From Myxococcales bacterium (lineage in GTDB: Bacteria > Myxococcota_A > Polyangia > Polyangiales > Polyangiaceae): a stretch of DNA of 64,000 nt. Shown one piece after another: positions 4,847 through 61,736 of this stretch. The DNA lies in assembly GCA_016720545.1 (NCBI GenBank), contig JADKKK010000003.1, positions 345,516 to 409,515 on the forward strand, written 5' to 3'. Each line of letters starts with the position of its first letter. Position 1 is the stretch's first letter. A program made the translations under genes and the position numbers. The notes under the pieces were generated by a model. That model was not told the DNA's origin, did no database searches, and worked only from the letters and a program-made list of their open reading frames with translations.

Positions 4847-7043
4847 TCAGTCGGACGGTTCTTGCGGCGTCGCGTCGTCTTCGGCACCTTGCCCTCGGCG
4901 GAGAACGCTGCGCAGTGGGCATCTGCCGGAAGCGGCTCTGGCCGGGCCGCGACCTCCGCGACGCGGACCACCTCTCCGGTGCTCTTGGAAGCGGTACTGC
5001 GAGCGGAACGCCGGCGCGCCCGCCTTTGGCCGACCCCTGGCCAGCGCCCGTCGCTCTGGAGGGCCCACGACCCGGCCGTGTCCTGGCTCGAGATCGAGCA
5101 TGTCCGCGCGGAGCTTCGCGCGCAGGGTGGCCCTCGATGGGGATCATCACCTCGACCCGCCGGTGAGGTTTCGCGGCATCCAGTCGGCGCTCGAGAGATA
5201 GGACCTCCTCTTTTCCGCCGTTGAAGCGGAAACACGCGACCGTGCTCAGGTACCGATCGACGATGGCGCGCCACCTCTGATGTTTTCGCTCACGTTCGGG
5301 ACACCGGGTCGCAGGCAGCAGATACCGCGAATGAGCAAGGTGATCTGCGCCTGCCTGGGAGGCGCAGTAGAGGGGCCTCGATCACGTCTTCGTCGACGAG
5401 CGAGTTCATCTTGGCCACGATGCGCGCCGGCTTCCCGTGGCGAGCCTGCTCGGCCTCCCGCGCGATGAGGCCCAGCACCCCCTCGTGGAGGCCGAGGGCG
5501 CGACGATGAGCGGGTTCCACGCGCCGGGCGCTGTAGCCGGTGAGCAGGTTGAAGAGCGACGACGCGTCTTCCCCGATGCTGGTGCGGCACGTGAGGAGCA
5601 GAAACGTCGGTGTAGTGCCTCGCGGTCCCCGGGTTGTAGGTGCCAGTCGACAGGTGCACGTACCGCCGCAGTCCGGCGCGCGCCGGACGATGAGCAGGCA
5701 CTTCGCGTGGGTCTTGAGGCCCATGAGGCCATGACCACGTACACGCCCGCTCTGCTCGAGGGTGCGGGCCCACTGGATGTTGGACTCTTCGTCGAAGCGG
5801 GCCTTCGAGCTCGACGATGGCGGTGACCTGCTTGCCCGACTCCGCGGCCCGCGCGAGCGCCTTGACGATGGAGAGTCGCCGCCGGCGCAGTAGAGGTCTG
5901 CTTGATGCCAACACGTCAGGGTCTTCGGCCGCGCGGCTGACGAGTTCGACGATCGGATCGAACGACTCGTAGGGGTGGTGAAGCAGGATGTCGCCGTCAC
6001 GGATGGCAGCGAAGATGTCCTCCGCGTCGCGCAGCCAGGGCACGGCAAGCGGCACGTCCGGCTCATCCCGCAGGTTGCGCCGCTCCTCGCGCGCGAACAG
6101 CGCGAGGGGATCGCTCACGTTCAGGACCGCCGTCGTGCGGTAGACGTCGCGCACGGGTCGAGCTTCAGGGCCTTCACCAGCTTGGAGAGCGACGCCTCGG
6201 TGTACTCTCGGACACCTCCAGCCTGACGGCGTTGCCGCGCTCGCGGCGGCGGGGCTCTCCTGCTGAATCGTCTGGAGGAGATCTTCCGCCTCCTCCTCGT
6301 CGATCTCGATGTCGAAGTTGCGTGTCACGCGGAACGCGTAGACCCCCTTCAGCCGCACCCCTGGGAAGATCATGTCGACGTGCCGCGCGACGATGTCCTC
6401 GAGCAGCACGAACGCGTGCGGCGCGACGACGCCGCGGCGCTCGGGACCAGGCCCACCATCATGAGGCGAGCAACATCGTGGGCACTTGCACGACGCCGAA
6501 GTTCACGTCGCCCGAGCCGTCGCGCGAGAACATGACGCCGAGGTTCAGGCTCTTGTTGCGCACGTGAGGAACGGGTGCCCCGGGTCGATCGCGATGGGCG
6601 TGAGGACCGGGAAGATCTCGCTGTGGAACCGCTCGTCGAGGCGGGCGAGCGCGTCCTCGGGGAGCTCCGCGGGCTTCAGCCACGCGTAGCCTTGCTCGGC
6701 CAGGGCGGGCAGGAGGTGGTGCTTCAGCACCTCGTCCTGGTGGAGCATCATCTCGTGCACTCGCTCGGAGATGCGGGTGATCTGTCGGCCGCACGCTCAT
6801 GCCGTCGGGGCGATCTCGCCGACCACGCCGGTGAGCTGCTGCTTAGGCCGGCCACCCGGACCATGAAAGAACTCGTCGAGGTTCGGGTGACGATCGCGTG
6901 GATTTCAGGCGCTCGAGGAGCGGCACGGTCTCAGTCTCGGCCTCGGCCAGCACGCGCGCGTTGAACTCGAGCCAGGACGCTCGCGGTTCCAGATAGAGGT
7001 GCGGGGCGCGCAGGTCGTCGGCCTCGCGGCTCGCCGGTGGCAT
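4847..7043 (-). pseudogene. ppk1: Polyphosphate kinase 1, at least 5 frameshifts. 3' end approximate.
   Basis: Start MPPASREADDLRAPHLYLEPRASWLEFNARVLAEAETETVPLLERLK (ATG revcomp 7041-7043). N-domain FHSEIFPVLTPIAIDPGHPF. Catalytic ...KTHAKCLLIVRR, YVHLSTGTYNP.TAR.YTD, FNLLTGYS, KMNSLVDE. C-terminus IVDRYL..FNGGKEEV...RRVEVMIPIE...LDLE. Confidence 0.85.
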
Positions 7044-13954: not shown

Positions 13955-14926
13955 TTGCCGCTCGCTCCACTGCGCACGCGTTTTGCGCCCTCGCCCACGG
14001 GGGATCTGCACCTCGGCGGGCTCCTCTGCGCGCTCGTGTCGTTCGCGCTCGCCCGCGCCTCGGGCGGCGCCTTCGTGCTGCGGATGGAGGACCTCGACGC
14101 TCCCCGAACGGTGAAGGGCAGCGCCGCCCGCATCGAGGCCGATCTCGCGCGGCTGGGTCTGGCCTGGGACGAGCCCGCGGCGGACGGCGCCGGGCTCCAT
14201 GCGCCCTACACGCAATCGGCCCGAGGCCCGCTGTACGAGGCGGCGCTGACCACGCTGGGCGAGGTCACGTACCCGTGCGACTGCTCCCGCTCCGAGCTGC
14301 TCGCGGCGAGCGCTCCACACGCGGGCGAGGACCGCGTCTACCCCGGCACCTGTCGGGAAAAAGATCCCGCGCGCGTGATGCGACGGCCACCCGCGCAGCG
14401 GCTCCGCGTCCCGGAGGGCGCGGTCGTCGAGCTCGTCGACCTCGCCGCGGGAACGCTCACGCAAGACGTCGGGCGCGAGGTGGGCGATTTCGTGCTGCGG
14501 CGTGGAGACGGCGTCTTCTCCTACCAGCTCGCCTGTGCGCTCGACGACCACGCGATGGCGATCGATCTCGTCGTCCGCGGGCGCGATCTCCTGACCTCCA
14601 CGCCCCGGCAGCTCCTGCTCGGGCGGCTCCTCGGCGCGCGCGCGGCGCCGCGCACGCTCCACGTGCCGCTGCTGGTGAACGGCTCCGGCGAGCGGCTGGC
14701 GAAGCGCACCGGCGGCATCGCGGTCCGCGAGCTGCTCGCGCGCGGCGTGCCGATGGAGGCGCTGTTCGGCGTGCTCGCCCACGCGGCGCGCCTCGCGACG
14801 ACGCCCGGCCCGCTCACGCTCGACGAGGTCGTCTCCCGCGCGGCCGCTCGCCTGCCCGCGCTGCTCCGCGGGGAGGTGCCCCTACCGGAGCGCGCGACAG
14901 TGCCCGACGCGCTCCAGGGGTGCTGA
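13955..14926 (+). CDS. gluQ: Glutamyl-Q tRNA(Asp) synthetase (YadB)
   Basis: TTG start gives MPLAPLRTRFAPSPTGDLHLGG (class I HIGH-type motif). Also YPCDCSRSE, YPGTCR and LAKR (KMSK-like). The 568-aa listed ORF is a fusion with the antisense of the upstream gene. Confidence 0.8.
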   Translation: MPLAPLRTRFAPSPTGDLHLGGLLCALVSFALARASGGAFVLRMEDLDAPRTVKGSAARIEADLARLGLAWDEPAADGAGLHAPYTQSARGPLYEAALTTLGEVTYPCDCSRSELLAASAPHAGEDRVYPGTCREKDPARVMRRPPAQRLRVPEGAVVELVDLAAGTLTQDVGREVGDFVLRRGDGVFSYQLACALDDHAMAIDLVVRGRDLLTSTPRQLLLGRLLGARAAPRTLHVPLLVNGSGERLAKRTGGIAVRELLARGVPMEALFGVLAHAARLATTPGPLTLDEVVSRAAARLPALLRGEVPLPERATVPDALQGC

Positions 14927-14936
14927 GCGGGCCGGC

Positions 14937-15097
14937 CTAGAGCGCCGAACCGCTTGATGACCGAGGATTTTCGCCGAGTTGCGAGCCGTGCGAGGCGCGA
15001 CGACGAGTCCTACTGCTGCTAGGCGAGGAGGAGCAACGAAAGTACGGCGACGTAAATCGGCGAAAAGCCGACCGAATCAAGCGGTTCGGCGCTCTAG
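14937..15097. repeat. 160-bp palindromic MITE/REP-like element with 22-bp perfect terminal inverted repeats (CTAGAGCGCCGAACCGCTTGAT / ATCAAGCGGTTCGGCGCTCTAG). Lies between convergent gluQ and the kinase gene.
   Basis: Seen directly. Internal complementarity (TTTTCGCCGA / TCGGCGAAAA). A second copy of the right half is at 55470-55548. Confidence 0.7.
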
Positions 15098-15098
15098 G

Positions 15099-16337
15099 TC
15101 AGCGGAGCCCGAGCGCTACGCCGACGACCACGCTCCCGCCGACCACGATGATCCACGCGAGCGTCCAGCCGAGCGCCCGACGCGGCGGAGTGACGGGCCG
15201 CTTCGACACGGTCTGCGACACCCGCGACCGGCTCGGGCGCTCGCGATCGGCGTCGCCCGTGCGGCGGCTATTCGGGGGGCGCGGCGAGAGCGAGGGCTCG
15301 GTGGTGCTCGCTTCGGCGGCGAACGGACCGGCGCTCGACGGCGTCGGCCCCGTGCGCTTGGTCTCGGGCACCGGCTCCTCGGGCGCCGGAGCCGGCGGGG
15401 TCTCCGGCGGGAGCGCGGCGCGCTCGGGCACGTCGTCGGGCTCGTCGGGGAAGATCTCGGCGCGCTCGAGCGAGGCCCGCATGGCGCCGGCCGACGAGTA
15501 GCGGTTGTTCGGGTCCTTCGACAGCGCGCGGAGCACGATCGCGGTCACGGCGGGCGAGAGGCCAGGCACCTTCGCCGCGGGCGAGGGCGGCGGCTCGGTG
15601 AGGTGGGCCGTGAGCACGGCGAGCGGCGTCTCCCCGCCGAAGGGAAGGGCGCCGGTGAGCATTTCGTAGAGCATCACCCCGCACGCGTAGAGATCGCACC
15701 GGCCGTCGAGCTCGTCGCCTTGGGCTTGCTCCGGAGACATGTACTCCGGCGTGCCAAACACCATGTTGAGGGTGGTGAGGTTGGTCGTCCCGGTGCCGCT
15801 GCCGCCGTTGACGATCTTCGAGAGGCCGAAGTCGACGACGGTGGCCCGCTCGGCGGCGTCGACGAGCACGTTGTGCGGCTTCAGGTCGCGGTGGATCACC
15901 CCCTGTCCGTGAGCGCACTCGAGCGCCTCGAGCACCTGCTTGGCGATGGCCACTGCGCGCGCCTCCGGGAGCTTGCCGTCTGCGATGAGTCGGTCGAGCG
16001 GCCGGCCATCGATGCGGGGCAGCGCGAGGCAGAGGAGGGGCACGCCGCCGGCCGGGTTCTCGACCTCGCCGACCTCGAGGATGCGGCACACGTGCGGCCC
16101 TTCGAGGCGGCGCAGGATGGCGCCCTCGCGCATGAAACGCCCGCGGATCTGCACCTCGCTCGCGAGGTGAGGGTGCATGACCTTGAGCGCGACGGACTCG
16201 CCGCTCGCGGTATCGCGTGCAGAATACACGACGCCCGTGCCGCCTTCGCCAAGTACGCCTTCGACCTCGTACTTGCCGAGCACGACCGCGCCCCGCCGGA
16301 GGCGCTCTTCGCTGGTGGTGCTCGCCGGGCCGTCCAT
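15099..16337 (-). CDS. Ser/Thr protein kinase with C-terminal TM anchor
   Basis: GEGGTGVVY, VALKVM, HRDLKPHNVLV, DFGLS, GTPEYMSPE. C-terminal WTLAWIIVVGGSVVVGVALGL. Confidence 0.9.
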   Translation of the reverse strand: MDGPASTTSEERLRRGAVVLGKYEVEGVLGEGGTGVVYSARDTASGESVALKVMHPHLASEVQIRGRFMREGAILRRLEGPHVCRILEVGEVENPAGGVPLLCLALPRIDGRPLDRLIADGKLPEARAVAIAKQVLEALECAHGQGVIHRDLKPHNVLVDAAERATVVDFGLSKIVNGGSGTGTTNLTTLNMVFGTPEYMSPEQAQGDELDGRCDLYACGVMLYEMLTGALPFGGETPLAVLTAHLTEPPPSPAAKVPGLSPAVTAIVLRALSKDPNNRYSSAGAMRASLERAEIFPDEPDDVPERAALPPETPPAPAPEEPVPETKRTGPTPSSAGPFAAEASTTEPSLSPRPPNSRRTGDADRERPSRSRVSQTVSKRPVTPPRRALGWTLAWIIVVGGSVVVGVALGLR

Positions 16338-16501
16338 CGCCGCGGCAGGATACCCGACACGCGAGCGGGCGCGAGCCTGGCGCTCCGTGCGCCAACGGTG
16401 CGTTACCCCGCACTTCCTGCGCCGCCCTCGGAGGAGCCCCGGGGCGCCCTCTCAGGTATCCGCGGGCCGCCGCTTGTCACGCGCCTTGCTTGGGTTGGTT
16501 C

Positions 16502-40935: not shown

Positions 40936-41065
40936 CCGGCGCCGCCGAGGCGACAAAAGAGGAATCGTGTCAGGCGCTTGCGCGTGGCCTGTCTCGCCCA
41001 CGCGCGTGGCCGCGCGGCGCGACGCGTGGGCCGCCTTCGTCCGTCGCCGTGCTAACAAGCGGCCC

Positions 41066-42199
41066 ATGAGGCAGCTCGTCCAGAAGGCCCGGCGCGTCGT
41101 GGTGAAGGTGGGCTCGCGCACGCTCGCGAGCGACCGCGAGGTGTTCGGGCGGCTCGCCGACGCCGTCGCCCGCGCCCAGGCCGGCGGGCGCTCGGTCGTG
41201 CTGGTGTCGAGCGGGGCCATCGCTCTCGGCGCGAAGAAGCTCGGCTACCCTACCCGCCCCAAGGAGATGGCCAAGCTGCAGGCGGCCGCCGCGGCGGGGC
41301 AGAGCCTGCTCATGCGCGCCTACGAGGAGGCCTTCGGCGCGCGCGGACTCGCGGTCGCCCAGGTGCTGCTCACCCACGCCGATCTCGCCGATCGCGCGCG
41401 GGTCAACAACGCACGCGCGGCGCTGTCCGCGCTGCTCGACGCGCGCGCGGTGCCCGTCCTGAACGAGAACGACTCGGTCTCGGTGGAGGAGATCAAGTTC
41501 GGCGACAACGACCAGCTCTCGGCGCTGGTCGCGCCCCTCGTCGACGCGGAGCTCCTCGTGCTCTTGTCCGACATCCCGGGGCTGCTCGACGCGGAGGGCG
41601 AGCGCGTGCCCGAGGTGCGCGACATCACGAACGAGGCGATGCGCCTCGTGCGGAGCGGGAAGAGCGCCGAGGGCACGGGCGGCATGGCGAGCAAGCTCGA
41701 GGCCGCGCGCCTCGCGACGCTCACGGGCGCGCAGGTGGTCATCGCCGACGCGCGCGCGCGCGACGTGCTCGATCGCGTGCTCGCGGGCGACGACGTGGGC
41801 ACGTGGTTCGTGGCGCCCGAGAAGCGCATCTCCGCGAAGCGCGCGTGGATCGCGTTCACTCTTCGGCCGCGCGGCGCGCTCGTGCTCGACCCTGGCGCCG
41901 CCCGGGCTGTCACCGAGAAAGGCAAGAGCGTGCTCAGCGTGGGTGTGCTGGGCGTGCGCGGCGACTTCCGCGCGGGCGACGCCGTGCGCCTCTTGTCGCA
42001 CGAGGGGGTGGAGCTCGGCCGCGGCCTGTCTCGGCTCGCGGTGGAGGCGGCCACCCGCGTCGCGGGCACCAAGGCGAGCGCGCCCGTCACGCCGAAGGCG
42101 GGCGGGGGCAAGGTCGCGTCGAAGCCCGACGATGACCGCGACGTGCTCGTGCACCGCGACGAGCTCGTGGTGTTCGCGAAGGCGAGCGCCGTCGGCTAG
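41066..42199 (+). CDS. proB: Glutamate 5-kinase (with PUA domain)
   Basis: VVVKVGSRTL, VLVSSGAIALG, ENDSVSVEEIKFGDND, PUA segment. No proA adjacent. Confidence 0.9.
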   Translation: MRQLVQKARRVVVKVGSRTLASDREVFGRLADAVARAQAGGRSVVLVSSGAIALGAKKLGYPTRPKEMAKLQAAAAAGQSLLMRAYEEAFGARGLAVAQVLLTHADLADRARVNNARAALSALLDARAVPVLNENDSVSVEEIKFGDNDQLSALVAPLVDAELLVLLSDIPGLLDAEGERVPEVRDITNEAMRLVRSGKSAEGTGGMASKLEAARLATLTGAQVVIADARARDVLDRVLAGDDVGTWFVAPEKRISAKRAWIAFTLRPRGALVLDPGAARAVTEKGKSVLSVGVLGVRGDFRAGDAVRLLSHEGVELGRGLSRLAVEAATRVAGTKASAPVTPKAGGGKVASKPDDDRDVLVHRDELVVFAKASAVG

Positions 42200-42500
42200 C
42201 TAGTCCCCTGGAGTCGTGGTTCGTATCAGAAGTCCGGTCTTCGGTGTCATGCCGAGGAGCGAGGGGGTGCCCCGTTTTCGGCGGCGGCGGGCCCGTCCTC
42301 AACTCGGACGTCGTTCCGCGCGGTGGAGGCGGCGCTTTGCGCTCAGGGGACAGTGGTTTCGGGTGTGACCGCGCGAGAACGCCGACCCTCGAACATGAGT
42401 ATCCTCCCACCGCCGCCGAAAACGGGACACCCCCTCGCGCCCTTGTGGCGAAAGGCCGAGCCGCGCGACTTCTGGAAGGGATCACGCTTCCAGGGGACTA
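42196..42500. repeat. ~300-bp imperfect palindromic element between proB and the protease gene. Outer arms TAGTCCCCTGGAG / CTTCCAGGGGACTA. Inner 29-bp arms GAGCGAGGGGGTGCCCCGTTTTCGGCGGCGG / CCGCCGCCGAAAACGGGACACCCCCTCGC.
   Basis: Seen directly. Starts with GCTAGCTAG at the proB stop codon. Confidence 0.65.
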
Positions 42501-42574
42501 GGTCTGACCTCATTTTGGCGTCCTCTCGCCCCGCCGCGACTCGCGCGCGGCGCGCGAGCTGCTACATCCCTGAA

Positions 42575-54286: not shown

Positions 54287-55384
54287 GTGACGCGAGCCTG
54301 CGCCTTCCCCGTGGCGGTCCTCGCCGCCGCCCTCGCGTGCGCCACTGTCGGCGCGGAGAAGCGGGCGTTCGCCGACGAGCCGAAGCCCCGTTCCACCGTC
54401 CTGCAGCGCGCCCGCGCGAGCTCAGACCTGCTCGACACGGCGCCCACCATCGCGGCGGTCGAGGGCACATGGTCGATCATGCTCCAGGCCGGCACCCTCA
54501 TGAGCACGCGGGCGTGGCTCGGCCCGTACCCGCGCGGGCTCGCAGCCCACGTCGCCACGCGCGCCCTCTACGGCACCACGTGGTCGGTGATGCTCGCCTC
54601 GGAGACCCTCCTCGCCCTCACCGTCTCGGGCGGCAGCTTCGCGTGGCTCGGCGAGGCCCACTACCGGGCCGATCAGCTCTTCGGCGTCGGCGTGCCCGCG
54701 GGGTGCGGCTCGTTCGGCGCGAACGGCGGCTGCGGGGTGGGGCTGGGCGGCTTCGCGGGGCTCCACGCGCGCCTCTCGGGCTCGCCGGTTTGGGTCGAGG
54801 TGTCGGGCGGCTGGATCCAGCAGCGCGTGGGCACCGACGCCCAGCGCACGCTCGGCGAGTCGACCTGGGTGATGACCCCGATCGGGATCACCGCCGAGGG
54901 CGTGGTGAACCGGGGCGGCGCGGTCGAGCTCCGCGCGACCGGCGGACCCCACCTCCAGTTCGGCATGCACAACGGGCACGTGCACCCCACGGCGCTCGGC
55001 GACGAGACCCTCTCGGTCCCCTGGACCGAGCTCTTCCCCATGCACATGGGCCTCGGGCCGGGCGCGCGCGCCGAGGTGCGGCTCGTGCTTGGCCAGCGGG
55101 TCTCCCTCGACCTCGAGGGCGTCTTCACGCCGCTGCTGCTCTCCAGCACCGAGGAGCACCCGCGGGCCGTCCTCGCGCCGCTCGGCCCCACGGCCGGCCA
55201 GGGATTGCCCACGTGGCGCCGCCTCGCGATAGGTGCAAGCTACATCGATCGCGCCGTCCGCGTGGGCCTCTCGTTCTTCGGCGCGGAGCTGTCGGGGCGC
55301 CCGGTGACCACGCTCGGACACCAGGCGATCGCCCTGCGGCTCGACTTCCCGCTCGGGCTCGACTCCCGCGAATCCAGGCGCTAG
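54287..55384 (+). CDS. Secreted Gly-rich protein (365 aa), unknown function
   Basis: Signal FPVAVLAAALACATVGA. Gly/Cys-rich GCGSFGANGGCGVGLGGFAGL. Confidence 0.5.
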   Translation: MTRACAFPVAVLAAALACATVGAEKRAFADEPKPRSTVLQRARASSDLLDTAPTIAAVEGTWSIMLQAGTLMSTRAWLGPYPRGLAAHVATRALYGTTWSVMLASETLLALTVSGGSFAWLGEAHYRADQLFGVGVPAGCGSFGANGGCGVGLGGFAGLHARLSGSPVWVEVSGGWIQQRVGTDAQRTLGESTWVMTPIGITAEGVVNRGGAVELRATGGPHLQFGMHNGHVHPTALGDETLSVPWTELFPMHMGLGPGARAEVRLVLGQRVSLDLEGVFTPLLLSSTEEHPRAVLAPLGPTAGQGLPTWRRLAIGASYIDRAVRVGLSFFGAELSGRPVTTLGHQAIALRLDFPLGLDSRESRR

Positions 55385-55469: not shown

Positions 55470-55548
55470 GCTGCCGAGGAGGAGCGTCGAAGCGCGGCGA
55501 CGCAAATCGGCGGAAAGCCGACCGAATCAAGCGGTTCGGTGCTCTAGG
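55470..55548. repeat. Second, half-length copy of the 14937-15097 element (about 85% identity over about 80 bp: GAGGAGGAGC..CGAAAG..CGGCGACG.AAATCGGCG.AAAGCCGACCGAATCAAGCGGTTCGG.GCTCTAGG)
   Basis: Seen directly. Confidence 0.7.
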
Positions 55549-55628: not shown

Positions 55629-56870
55629 GTGATCTCCTCGAAACTCCCCCGCACCAAAGAAGACCGCGCGATCTTCTTCGACGAAAAGGCCTGGCTGAAC
55701 CGCTGGGACCGGCTGACCGAGGAGGGGAAGAAGCTCAAGCGCTGCAAGCGCTGCCTGTACGGCGAGGATCTCCCGTCCATTAAGTTCGACGAGCTCGGCG
55801 TCTGCAACTACTGCGCGATGCACGACAAGCTCGAGGCCGAGTACCAGACCGGCTCCGAGGCGGCTTCGCGCCGGTTCTCGGAGATCGTGCAGAGCATCAA
55901 GGACGAGGGCCGGGGAAAACCCTACGATCTGGTGGTCGGGGTGAGCGGCGGCGCCGATTCGTCGTACCTCATCCACCTCGCGAAGGAGCGCGGCCTCCGC
56001 CCGCTCGCTGTTCACTACGACAACACGTGGAACTCCACCATCGCGGTGGAGAACATCCATAGCGTGCTGAAGAAGCACGACGTGGAGCTCAACACCTACG
56101 TGGTCGACAACGAGGAGTACGACGAGATTTACCGCGCGTTCCTGCGCTCTGGCACGATCGACCTCGACTGCCCGACCGATCTCGCCCTCGCGACCGTGCT
56201 CAATCGCGTCGCTGAAGAGGTGGGGACGCGCTTCATCTTCGAGGGCCACTCCTTCCAGAGCGAGGGCCTGTTCCCCATCGGCTGGCTCTACATGGACGCT
56301 CGCTACGTCCAGAGCGTCGTCACGCGCCATGGAAACGTGAAGCTCGACACGTATCCGAGCCTCTGGTTGAAAGACCAACTCCGCTGGATGCTCGCGCGGC
56401 GAATCAGGAAGGTACGACCGCTCTGGTATCTCCGGTACGACAAGCCGGCCGTCAAGGAGATGCTCATCCGAGACTACGGCTGGAAGTGGTACGGCGGTCA
56501 CCACCTCGAGAACCGGATCACCTCTTTCTGGCACACCTACTTCGCCCCCCGCAGGTGGAGCATCGACGCCCGCATCGTCGGGCACTCCGCGCACGTTCGC
56601 TCGGGCCTCCTGGGCCGCGACGAGGCGGCGGCCGATATCGAGGGACCTCCGCCTTGCTCCATGGACCAAGTGTTCATGATCATGAAGCGCTGGGGGTTCG
56701 ACCAGGCCCAATTCGAAGACTTGATGACGCTTCCGTTCCACGGGTATCGTGAATACGACACGTACAAGACCGTCTTCGAGAGGGGGCGCCCGTTCTTCTA
56801 CATGCTCGCCAAGCTCGAGCTCATTCCGATGAGCTTCTACGTAAAGTACACGTCGAAGGACAACATCTGA
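55629..56870 (+). CDS. N-acetyl sugar amidotransferase (WbpG/PseA-like PP-loop ATP pyrophosphatase)
   Basis: CxxC...CxxC N-terminus (CKRCLYGEDLPSIKFDELGVCNYC). PP-loop VGVSGGADSSY. Noticeably lower GC and A/T-ending codons compared with neighbours. Confidence 0.7.
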   Translation: MISSKLPRTKEDRAIFFDEKAWLNRWDRLTEEGKKLKRCKRCLYGEDLPSIKFDELGVCNYCAMHDKLEAEYQTGSEAASRRFSEIVQSIKDEGRGKPYDLVVGVSGGADSSYLIHLAKERGLRPLAVHYDNTWNSTIAVENIHSVLKKHDVELNTYVVDNEEYDEIYRAFLRSGTIDLDCPTDLALATVLNRVAEEVGTRFIFEGHSFQSEGLFPIGWLYMDARYVQSVVTRHGNVKLDTYPSLWLKDQLRWMLARRIRKVRPLWYLRYDKPAVKEMLIRDYGWKWYGGHHLENRITSFWHTYFAPRRWSIDARIVGHSAHVRSGLLGRDEAAADIEGPPPCSMDQVFMIMKRWGFDQAQFEDLMTLPFHGYREYDTYKTVFERGRPFFYMLAKLELIPMSFYVKYTSKDNI

Positions 56871-60380: not shown

Positions 60381-60829
60381 GCGCTCTAGCTAGCTAAGCT
60401 AGTCGCTGCGCTTTCGGCTCCGGGACCGCTTGCTCCGGGTCCGGCACCTCAGGCTTGGGGCCGGTCACTTTTTTCCCTTTCTCGGCCGCCTCTCGCTCCC
60501 GCTCCGCGCGCTTTGCGATGGCCTCCGCGGGCGGGCCTCACTTCCAGGTTCGCCATCGCCCGTGGTGAAGCGGTTGAAGCGGTCGCCGCGGTGGAGATCG
60601 CCGCCCACGCGGGGGACGCCACCCAAGAAGCGGCCGACCGATGCGTCGTCCTCGGGGATCGGTTGGTGGCGCTCCTCACGGGCCTCATCCGCCGCTGAGG
60701 GTTCGCGCTCGCCGCCCGCGGCTTCGGGTCGCGGTCGCGGTCGGGGGTCGGGGTCGCGGTCGGGGGTCGCGGGTCGGGGTCGCGGTCGGGTGGCGTTGGT
60801 CTTTTCCCGACACACTCCTAGCTAGAGCG
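60381..60829. mobile_element. ~450-bp MITE-like element bounded by perfect 12-bp inverted repeats CGCTCTAGCTAG / CTAGCTAGAGCG. Contains hexanucleotide (GGGTCG/CGGTCG) repeats and a small RP/DP-rich ORF (60465..60815, minus strand).
   Basis: Seen directly. Termini share GCGCTCTAG with the 14937-15097 family. Confidence 0.55.
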
Positions 60830-61736
60830 ACGTGTTCATCACCGCGCGCGTGACGGTGTCGGCCACGAGGGGGTACTTGTTCGCGCTCAAGGGCACCGGG
60901 AACGCCACCCCGGTGAGCTTGCAGCCGGCCTTCGCGCCGGCGAACTCTACCAGCCCGGTGCCGGGCGTGACATTGGAGATGAACACGTTGGCGCCGCGAT
61001 CGCCGGCGCTGGCGGTGAGCGCGAGGTTCGGGTTGAAGGAGCCCGAGTCGGCGTACTGAACCACGGCCTCCGGGTGGCCCGGGATCGTCACGACGAAGCC
61101 GCTCGCGTCGCAGGTGGGCTCGGCCCTGTTGATCACCAGGTAGAAATGGGCCTTCGCGGCGTTGTAGGTGGCGTCGAAGGACCCCATGGTCGTCTTCGCG
61201 AACACGGAGACGTCGGTGTCGGTCCGCACGCCGGGGGGGAAGTTGTAGACGACGCTCGCGCTCTTGTAGAAATCCGCGGGGTTCGTGGACGTCACGAGCA
61301 GGTAGTGGTTCACGCCAGTGGTCGGAGTGAAGCGCACGCGCGAGCCGGCGTAGGGGAGGGGCGCGCTCGTCCCCTGGCACGCGTCCACGAGCTGGATCGA
61401 GGTCTTGCCGCTGGGGTCGGTCCCGCTGTTCGCGGGGTTGAGCTTCACATCGGTCGCGCCCTTGTCGGTGCACGCGCCGGCCTCCGTAGGAGCGTCGGGC
61501 GAGGCGTCGACTGGCGGGGGTGCATCGGGCGTGGCAGCGTCCGTCGCCGTCGCTGACGCGTCGGGGGTCGGCGTGGTGGTCGTCGTCGTCGCCGTCGTCG
61601 TGGTCGTCGTGGTCGGCGCGGGGCCCGCGTCGGTCGCGGCCGGATCGCTGCTGCAGGCGCCGAGGGGCGCGAGGGGCGCGATCGCGCCGACGGCGAGGAG
61701 GGCGAGCAGCGGACGCTTCAGGGTGAAGTTGTGCAT
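60822..61736 (-). CDS. Lipoprotein with poly-Thr linker (304 aa)
   Basis: LAPLGACSS lipobox. TTTTTTTATTTTTT encoded by a (GTC)n tract. CTAGCTAG sits at both gene ends (60818, 61744). Confidence 0.6.
   Translation of the reverse strand: MHNFTLKRPLLALLAVGAIAPLAPLGACSSDPAATDAGPAPTTTTTTTATTTTTTPTPDASATATDAATPDAPPPVDASPDAPTEAGACTDKGATDVKLNPANSGTDPSGKTSIQLVDACQGTSAPLPYAGSRVRFTPTTGVNHYLLVTSTNPADFYKSASVVYNFPPGVRTDTDVSVFAKTTMGSFDATYNAAKAHFYLVINRAEPTCDASGFVVTIPGHPEAVVQYADSGSFNPNLALTASAGDRGANVFISNVTPGTGLVEFAGAKAGCKLTGVAFPVPLSANKYPLVADTVTRAVMNTSL

Follow-up and report, generated by a model that had tools for sequence, protein, structure and literature searches.

A CTAG-targeting miniature inverted-repeat element of Myxococcota, probably mobilised in trans by an IS1182-family transposase

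In a 64,000-nucleotide stretch of a Myxococcales genome (GCA_016720545.1, contig JADKKK010000003.1, positions 345,516 to 409,515; the whole stretch is referred to here as the window), the gap between two convergent stop codons is almost wholly occupied by a 161-bp near-palindrome at positions 14937-15097. The locus raises the question of whether this palindrome belongs to the expression of its neighbours or is a mobile element and, if the latter, what moves it. It is very probably a miniature inverted-repeat transposable element (MITE) that relies on an IS1182-family DDE transposase acting in trans and inserts at the tetranucleotide CTAG. Here, we describe the anatomy of the element, its copy number and boundaries, its filled and empty sites, the restoration of a nested insertion, and the identity of its termini with those of IS1182-family insertion sequences (ISs). 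These termini point to an IS1182 transposase as the likely agent for the MITE family, and the hairpin that the element encodes may influence the flanking transcripts.

The 161 bp include a CTAG at each end and are non-coding, with no open reading frame (ORF) of 80 aa or more inside the element. The termini, CTAGAGCGCCGAACCGCTTGAT and ATCAAGCGGTTCGGCGCTCTAG, are perfect 22-nt inverted repeats, and the arms remain 79% complementary out to 53 nt. The copy begins with the left CTAG (14937-14940), which is a target-site duplication or contains a TA duplication within a CTAG target, followed by the left terminal inverted repeat AGCGCCGAACCGCTTGAT on the + strand (14941-14958), which matches the ends of IS1182-family ISs (AGCGCCGAACGGGTTGAA...). 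A central CTAG (15019-15022) corresponds to the position at which other copies have been entered by nested insertions. The right terminal inverted repeat lies on the - strand (15076-15093; ATCAAGCGGTTCGGCGCT on the + strand) and is followed by the right CTAG of the target-site duplication (15094-15097). A single long hairpin is predicted for either strand, with a folding energy of -107.5 kcal/mol for the + strand RNA (z = -8.1 against dinucleotide shuffles). The window, with a G+C content of 71.8%, contains the 19-nt terminus three times where 0.04 occurrences are expected; the third of these marks the end of a truncated copy.

The element belongs to a dispersed family. An exact scan covering one genome per species recovered 70 terminus-bearing stretches, all from Myxococcota, whose hosts are metagenome-assembled genomes (MAGs) of Polyangiaceae and Myxococcales and Sorangium sp. 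So ce388; in the latter, the same termini surround an unrelated interior. A single closed 9.9-Mb MAG chromosome (OZ245328.1) contains 16 loci of the MITE terminus, and a degenerate terminus scan of soil metagenomes yielded at least 120 MITE loci. Viral contigs scanned for the terminus gave one match, and the MITE had no DNA match in a plasmid collection. The boundaries of the element are sharp: BLAST homology between the window MITE and all other copies stops exactly at the outer CTAGs, and the 12 nt outside these CTAGs are unrelated between copies. The main form is 160-161 bp long and variants range overall from 71 to 221 bp, with subfamilies of 184-198 bp and 221 bp; deletion derivatives measure 34-129 bp. 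Among 32 aligned copies the terminal core AGCRCCGAAC is near-invariant.

The consequences of this repetition are visible in draft genomes, where the MITE repeat breaks short-read assemblies. Many contigs of MAG GFS_9240 (JAYUKI01) end within the MITE (L002, L004, L008, L017, L024, L026, L032, L035, L045, L047, L048, L056, L065 and L069), and the partial copies at these contig ends are 97-100% identical to the window MITE. Near-identical copies are also found across apparently different species.

CTAG is present at both ends of 72 short copies and 14 IS-size copies. Another 31 short two-ended copies have CTAG at one end only, the other end being mostly a one-base variant of CTAG, and none of the short two-ended copies has an identical non-CTAG 4-mer on both sides. 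At the window locus, the MITE lies 10 nt past the TGA of a GluQRS-like gene on the + strand (13955-14926; Pfam tRNA-synt_1c, 3e-37) and 1 nt ahead of the stop codon (15099-15101) of a convergent Ser/Thr protein kinase gene on the - strand (15099-16451; Pfam Pkinase, 1.4e-46), whose upper coordinate marks where the open frame ends, the start codon being putative. A sequence-only reading of this DNA had placed a 160-bp element with 22-bp perfect terminal repeats between convergent gluQ and kinase genes; the repeats and the location stand, and the length is corrected to 161 bp. No tRNA or tmRNA was found near the element.

Empty sites were sought through GluQRS homologues and their contigs. The gluQ-kinase site is filled in three assemblies of one species, namely the window, L192, whose protein is 99% identical, and L215 (GCA_963852875.1), which is 99.7% identical to the window over a collinear stretch and in which the exact protein of the window GluQRS-like gene is also recorded. 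The MITE is absent from the orthologous site in L193 (87% GluQRS identity) and in L194/L195 (78%), where the gluQ-kinase spacer is 11-20 nt long and the intergenic DNA is too diverged for the ancestral target to be read. The window shares no synteny with the 70 genome loci, so these yielded no empty site. The target can be read directly from a nested insertion in L049, in which an inner copy (5825-5984) lies within the central CTAG of an outer copy. Removal of the inner copy together with one CTAG restores a 160-bp outer copy without a single difference from the intact copy in L053 (160/160), and further insertions at the central CTAG are present in L018, L031 and L010. The nested insertions establish, at the level of sequence comparison, that insertion occurs at CTAG and leaves CTAG on both sides.

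This target also accounts for where the copies lie. CTAG is depleted in the window, occurring 29 times against the 66-164 expected under three background models, and the two MITE copies account for four of these. CTAG holds a stop codon on both strands, and in L027, L055 and L061 the TAG stop of a gene is the TAG of the terminal CTAG. When ORFs with high G+C at third codon positions were tallied around 46 full-length copies, 23 ended at the element and four started there; orientation relative to the incoming gene was unbiased (9 versus 14). The location of MITEs at gene 3' ends can be attributed to the rarity of CTAG combined with a presumed selection against intragenic insertion, and a terminator function therefore need not be invoked for it.

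Complete elements that carry both the MITE-type termini and a transposase gene identify a probable partner. The element in L147 is 1881 bp long, has perfect 24-nt termini, CTAGAGCGCCGAACGGGTTGAAAG, and contains one ORF of 544 aa whose product has Pfam DUF772, DDE_Tnp_1 and DDE_Tnp_1_6 matches and reaches 315 bits against the NCBIfam IS1182 model (NF033551; cut-off 270 bits). At least 9 further elements of 1578-1776 bp from metagenome loci have the same ends and related transposases, so that the full-length elements (1578-1881 bp) in which MITE-type termini accompany an IS1182-family transposase number at least 10; in about twenty loci a transposase match adjoins a MITE-type terminus. The ends common to MITE and IS are found in L147, L164, L181, L183, L186, L200 and L201, and are more divergent in L198/L199. 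The two ends of an IS are slightly unlike each other. The right end of the MITE resembles the transposase-proximal one, with which it shares the subterminal TGATTCGGT (on the - strand at the right end; compare L175, L181, L183 and L186), and the left end resembles the other IS end more weakly. Judged from these ends, the two-sided likeness is the appearance expected of an internal-deletion derivative of an IS.

A database search with one transposase returned thousands of relatives, some of them named 'IS1182 family transposase' (Byssovorax, Sorangium sp. So ce295), and in the plasmid collection the only relatives were distant IS1182 ones from Nostoc and Vibrio. The genome of Sorangium sp. So ce295 (CP150324.1) carries two identical 1901-bp composites about 10.5 Mb apart (L198 1397-3297 and L199 1397-3297), each consisting of a 1736-bp IS and an abutting 169-bp MITE-like unit with a shared CTAG between them. 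The two composites agree without a mismatch, differ in their flanks and are bounded by CTAG on each side; the composite has therefore moved recently as a unit by way of its MITE-type outer end. An IS of the same clade was also observed in an IS-rich island, L213 1-9587 (ENA ERZ25039454 contig_434), inside a cluster of transposase genes (IS66 TnpB and DDE, DDE_5, DDE_3).

The family is thus multi-copy, with conserved termini, orthologous sites with and without the element, nesting, and ends that match those of IS1182 ISs, which bears out the sequence-only proposal of a non-autonomous mobile family; at the level of the family, so does the tally of abutting ORFs for its statement that copies lie at gene 3' ends. 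The transposases it had named as possible partners (IS200/IS605 TnpA-REP, IS630 and IS5) gave way to one of the IS1182 family, a relative of IS5.

These observations can be joined into a mechanism. The MITE comprises two IS-like ends and about 120 bp of non-coding DNA that folds back on itself, and would be mobilised by an IS1182-family DDE transposase whose own ISs carry AGCGCCGA[A/T]C... termini. Insertion into the palindromic CTAG would leave CTAG on both sides, as a 4-bp duplication or, formally, a TA duplication within CTAG. With CTAG strongly depleted in this genome of 72% G+C and often containing the TAG stop of a gene, tolerated insertions would accumulate just after genes. Each insertion would double the CTAG and the element brings a central CTAG of its own, so copies would be prone to nest and cluster.

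The closest described case is MITEPye1 (ISfinder) of Paracoccus yeei, a 159-bp intergenic element with 18-bp inverted repeats like those of the IS1182-family ISPye18, 4-bp direct repeats, and a long predicted stem-loop (PMC11578231). The likeness extends to the non-coding character, the size of about 160 bp, the intergenic location, the IS1182-like repeats and the stem-loop. The comparison is one of description rather than alignment; the repeat sequence is absent from the main text of that paper, and a preference for CTAG is not known to be common to both. The two cases differ in host, which is an alphaproteobacterium for MITEPye1 and Myxococcota here, and in number, with one to three chromosomal copies against 16 loci in one closed chromosome and many genomes here. 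Among IS1182 ISs, ISPse1 produced a 4-bp repeat when captured in a trap plasmid (PMC3281130), and some members of the family are reported to target palindromes, while IS1272 replaces hairpins and leaves no duplication (PMC5678879). Full-length ISs that encode a transposase of this family (NF033551; the family includes ISPse1, IS1272 and ISPsy36) have termini matching those of the MITE, and palindrome targeting fits CTAG, which is itself a palindrome; the palindromic flanks at L125, L174 and window 60381-60829, described below, resemble this targeting. The MITE differs from these ISs in having no transposase gene and one tenth of their size, and the insertions described here differ from those of IS1272 in leaving a duplication. 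A literature search for MITEs in myxobacteria found no relevant paper among those covered, and one for IS1182 together with CTAG found nothing useful. The element is an ordinary kind of mobile DNA, in soil myxobacteria where it was previously undescribed.

The choice of CTAG would suit a different enzyme. IS630 prefers CTAG and duplicates TA, and bacterial MITEs derived from IS630/Tc1-mariner elements, such as RUP, are small, hairpin-forming, and bounded by terminal inverted repeats. If the present family were of that type, the duplication would be TA only and the element proper would run GAGCGCC...GGCGCTC. Its target is always CTAG, and because of this the junctions fit a 2-bp TA duplication within CTAG and a 4-bp CTAG duplication equally well and the two are inseparable by sequence. 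The autonomous partners speak against the IS630 type: all full-length elements found with these termini encode an IS1182-family transposase and not an IS630-type DDE_3, and both ISPse1 and MITEPye1, on the IS1182 side, are flanked by 4-bp repeats. We therefore consider an IS630-type MITE most improbable; a duplication of 4 bp rather than 2 bp is presumed. The long hairpin, extragenic site, moderate copy number and strongly maintained compensatory pairing also recall repetitive extragenic palindromes (REP/REPIN elements) spread by a REP-associated tyrosine transposase (RAYT) of the IS200/IS605-like Y1 type. In that case only the left CTAG would represent the target, the right one being the element's own, and a one-sided target with an element-borne CTAG could mimic a duplication. 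The MITE termini are those of IS1182-family DDE elements, that is, classical terminal inverted repeats, and do not look like short REP palindromes headed by a conserved GTAG-type motif; the nested insertions show a duplicated CTAG, where REP elements are expected to leave none; and no Y1 transposase was found among the proteins scanned beside copies, although no search aimed at Y1 genes was made. The REP-type element that the sequence-only reading had entertained is thus barely credible here. That reading's other suggestion, a structured RNA or terminator, would make the palindrome a host element, either a bidirectional terminator or a 3'-end stabiliser, repeated because it functions and not because it moves. 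The position exactly between two stop codons and the hairpin z-score favour such a role, as do the pairing statistics and conserved interior blocks considered below. Searches in the window gave no U-tract terminator on either strand of 14700-15350 and no sigma-70-like promoter consensus, and Rfam gave no match, either for the whole window at the gathering threshold or for 14850-15200 at E <= 1. Relatives manage with only 11-20 nt between the same genes, and therefore need no such element there. The lack of orientation bias relative to flanking genes further argues against it, and the nested copies, deletion derivatives and IS-type ends point to mobility. A host element of this kind is very unlikely, and a secondary, exapted RNA role for the hairpin is possible.

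Several findings weigh against an IS1182-mobilised MITE, or at least against its simplest form. The loci were retrieved with CTAG-containing patterns, so that one CTAG end per copy is present by construction, and the ambiguity of the junctions has been noted above. Neither the window nor any of the 70 genome loci bearing the MITE (L001-L070) yielded a transposase gene with exact MITE termini; the sole IS1182-family element tied to the species of the window has other termini (GAGTGTGTCGGG); and the termini of IS and MITE differ at about 3 of 22 positions. Three candidate sequences for a cognate IS of the window's species (P0122, P0123 and P0221) showed no link to it, all being from other samples. 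A cognate transposase is presumably encoded in the window's own genome. The remaining points come from a structural alignment of 32 copies of about 160 bp, for which RNAalifold predicts 48 pairs with 95.8% of cells paired. Changes on both sides occur in 21 of the 48 pairs, far inside the terminal repeats, where column shuffles give 9.4 ± 1.9 and sliding of the partners gives 3-10, and in the helix at alignment columns 30-40 / 126-136 nine of ten pairs covary. Moreover, non-palindromic interior blocks (GACCGAGGATTT, AGGCGCGACGAC, TACTG, GAGGAGGAGCAACG and AAAGCCGAC) are invariant across copies that are 64-80% identical overall. Neither compensatory pairing nor an invariant interior is required by a plain 'junk MITE' model. 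On the + strand G-U cells outnumber A-C cells by 56 to 14, an excess that shrinks to 18 versus 12 when counted per pair and is weak and unconvincing for strand-specific selection. The covariation may come from both ends having to fit one transposase, from DNA-level correction between the arms of a quasi-palindrome, or from selection on an RNA or single-stranded DNA hairpin; the conserved asymmetric interior blocks are unexplained. A bolder reading is that the element is a selected RNA or single-stranded DNA module (for instance a 3'-end RNA stabiliser, a roadblock or a transposition hairpin) mounted on IS1182-type ends, which seeds new CTAG targets in CTAG-depleted genomes, with the local excess of CTAGCTAG described below as a record of cycles of excision and re-insertion. 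We regard this as unlikely.

As an IS1182-mobilised MITE, the element offers a concrete explanation, open to checking, for a repeat at which myxobacterial and soil-metagenome assemblies break, and accounts for repeats that lie right after stop codons in high-G+C genomes. For the IS1182 family, whose choice of targets has been little characterised, it also links one clade to a strict CTAG target. No new kind of biology is involved unless the conserved interior proves functional.

Two other segments of the window had been connected with the 161-bp element by the sequence-only reading. One was an 80-bp half copy, about 85% identical, at 55470-55548. This half copy is real, and its limits are refined to 55475-55547 on the + strand, with 88.8% identity over an 80-nt BLAST alignment that extends a few nt into the flank. 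It is a truncated right half, corresponding to element positions of about 88-161 and starting at the position of the central CTAG (here GTAG), and it sits in a 244-nt spacer between the genes at 54287-55384 (+) and 55629-56870 (+). The spacing of these genes, which was compared without the DNA itself, is the same in six other assemblies and gives no clue to how the half copy formed.

The other was a 450-bp element bounded by 12-bp inverted repeats. The 12-nt inverted repeat CGCTCTAGCTAG / CTAGCTAGAGCG is present at 60382-60393 / 60818-60829, its right arm overlapping the stop and last codons of the gene at 60822-61736, and consists of target and duplication rather than of a terminus. The motif GCGCTCTAG that had been taken to unite this segment with the 161-bp element is a 9-mer with three matches against 0.93 expected, a number reached in 6 of 100 shuffles and thus not significant alone; the true IS end is CCCGACACACTC. 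A sister strain (L202, CAWKVH010000008.1, GCA_963852875.1; flanks 99.4% identical) carries an intact IS of about 2.5 kb at the same site, bounded by CTAG | GAGTGTGTCGGG ... CCCGACACACTC | CTAG, which encodes a 563-aa transposase (349 bits on NCBIfam IS1182) and a four-helix-bundle (23S_rRNA_IVP) passenger gene. This comparison ruled out 60381-60829 as a MITE with CGCTCTAGCTAG termini. The window keeps pieces of an IS of the L202 type in opposite orientation relative to the flanks, and the segment (60381-60829) is annotated as an inverted, internally deleted remnant of an IS1182-family IS at a palindromic target, CGCT|CTAG|AGCG. The pieces are a 127-nt internal fragment of the transposase gene on the - strand (60404-60530; 100% identical to L202 4676-4802), the 3' part of the passenger 23S_rRNA_IVP gene with downstream GGTCGGGGTCGCGG-type tandem repeats on the + strand (60548-60790; 96.7% identical to L202 6035-6275), and the true right terminal repeat CCCGACACACTC (60806-60817), which is followed by CTAGCTAG and whose partner GAGTGTGTCGGG is lost in the window. 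The 12-nt repeat, as a palindromic target with doubled CTAGs, therefore indicates a second, decayed IS1182-family insertion at CTAG. Its resemblance to the 161-bp element arises from the shared CTAG target and the palindromic target flank; the two appear to be related in mechanism, as IS1182-type insertions at CTAG, and not in sequence. For annotation, the segment is to be flagged as an IS remnant and as neither a gene nor a new element. No homologs of it were found in the other fetched loci; the assembly JADIZX010000009.1 (L203) is collinear with the window at 99.76%, and the exact protein of the gene at 60822-61736 is recorded in several assemblies. The GGTCGGGGTCGCGG-type tandem repeat (window 60718-60790) is about double in length in the sister strain (L202 6200-6385).

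The sequence CTAGCTAG occurs four times in the window (42196, 60386, 60818 and 61742) and not once in the other 1.07 Mb of loci fetched; where the window has CTAGCTAG on either side of the IS remnant, L202 has a single CTAG. These sites may record repeated rounds of insertion and excision at CTAG, and their local excess is unexplained. The site at 42196 adjoins a CTAG-flanked inverted-repeat element of about 300 bp (42200-42501) with ends TCCCCTGGAG.../...TCCAGGGGA and with arms (42200-42291 / 42406-42501) that are 74% complementary. It directly follows the TAG stop of the gene at 40967-42199, with an extra CTAG ahead of the element, and no other copies of it were found among the fetched loci.

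Longer palindromes surround the target at two other loci. The flanks are CCCCGCAGGCTG|CTAG...CTAG|CAGCCTGCGGGG at L125 2170-2809 and GATCTGAAGCGC|CTAG...CTAG|GGCGCTTCAGAT at L174 2300-3065. In each case the two flanks are mutually inverted; the target CTAG was therefore the midpoint of a longer palindrome, and the same holds at window 60381-60829.

In or beside copies of the first MITE family lie members of a second one (L010 7508-7671, L005 1465-1639, L049 5581-5746 and L022 374-541), which are about 164 bp long, have CAGCCYGTTGAAAAAS termini and are likewise flanked by CTAG. Both families have the interior blocks GACCGAG, TAC..GTAGG, GGAGGA.CGCAACGAAGC and GACGGGAG in common. Finally, 23S_rRNA_IVP (TIGR02436) four-helix-bundle genes are carried as passengers by two IS1182-type elements that are unrelated to each other: a 616-bp element with MITE termini but no transposase (L125 2182-2797), and the 2.5-kb IS of the sister strain (gene at L202 5826-6185), of which window 60548-60698 is the remnant.

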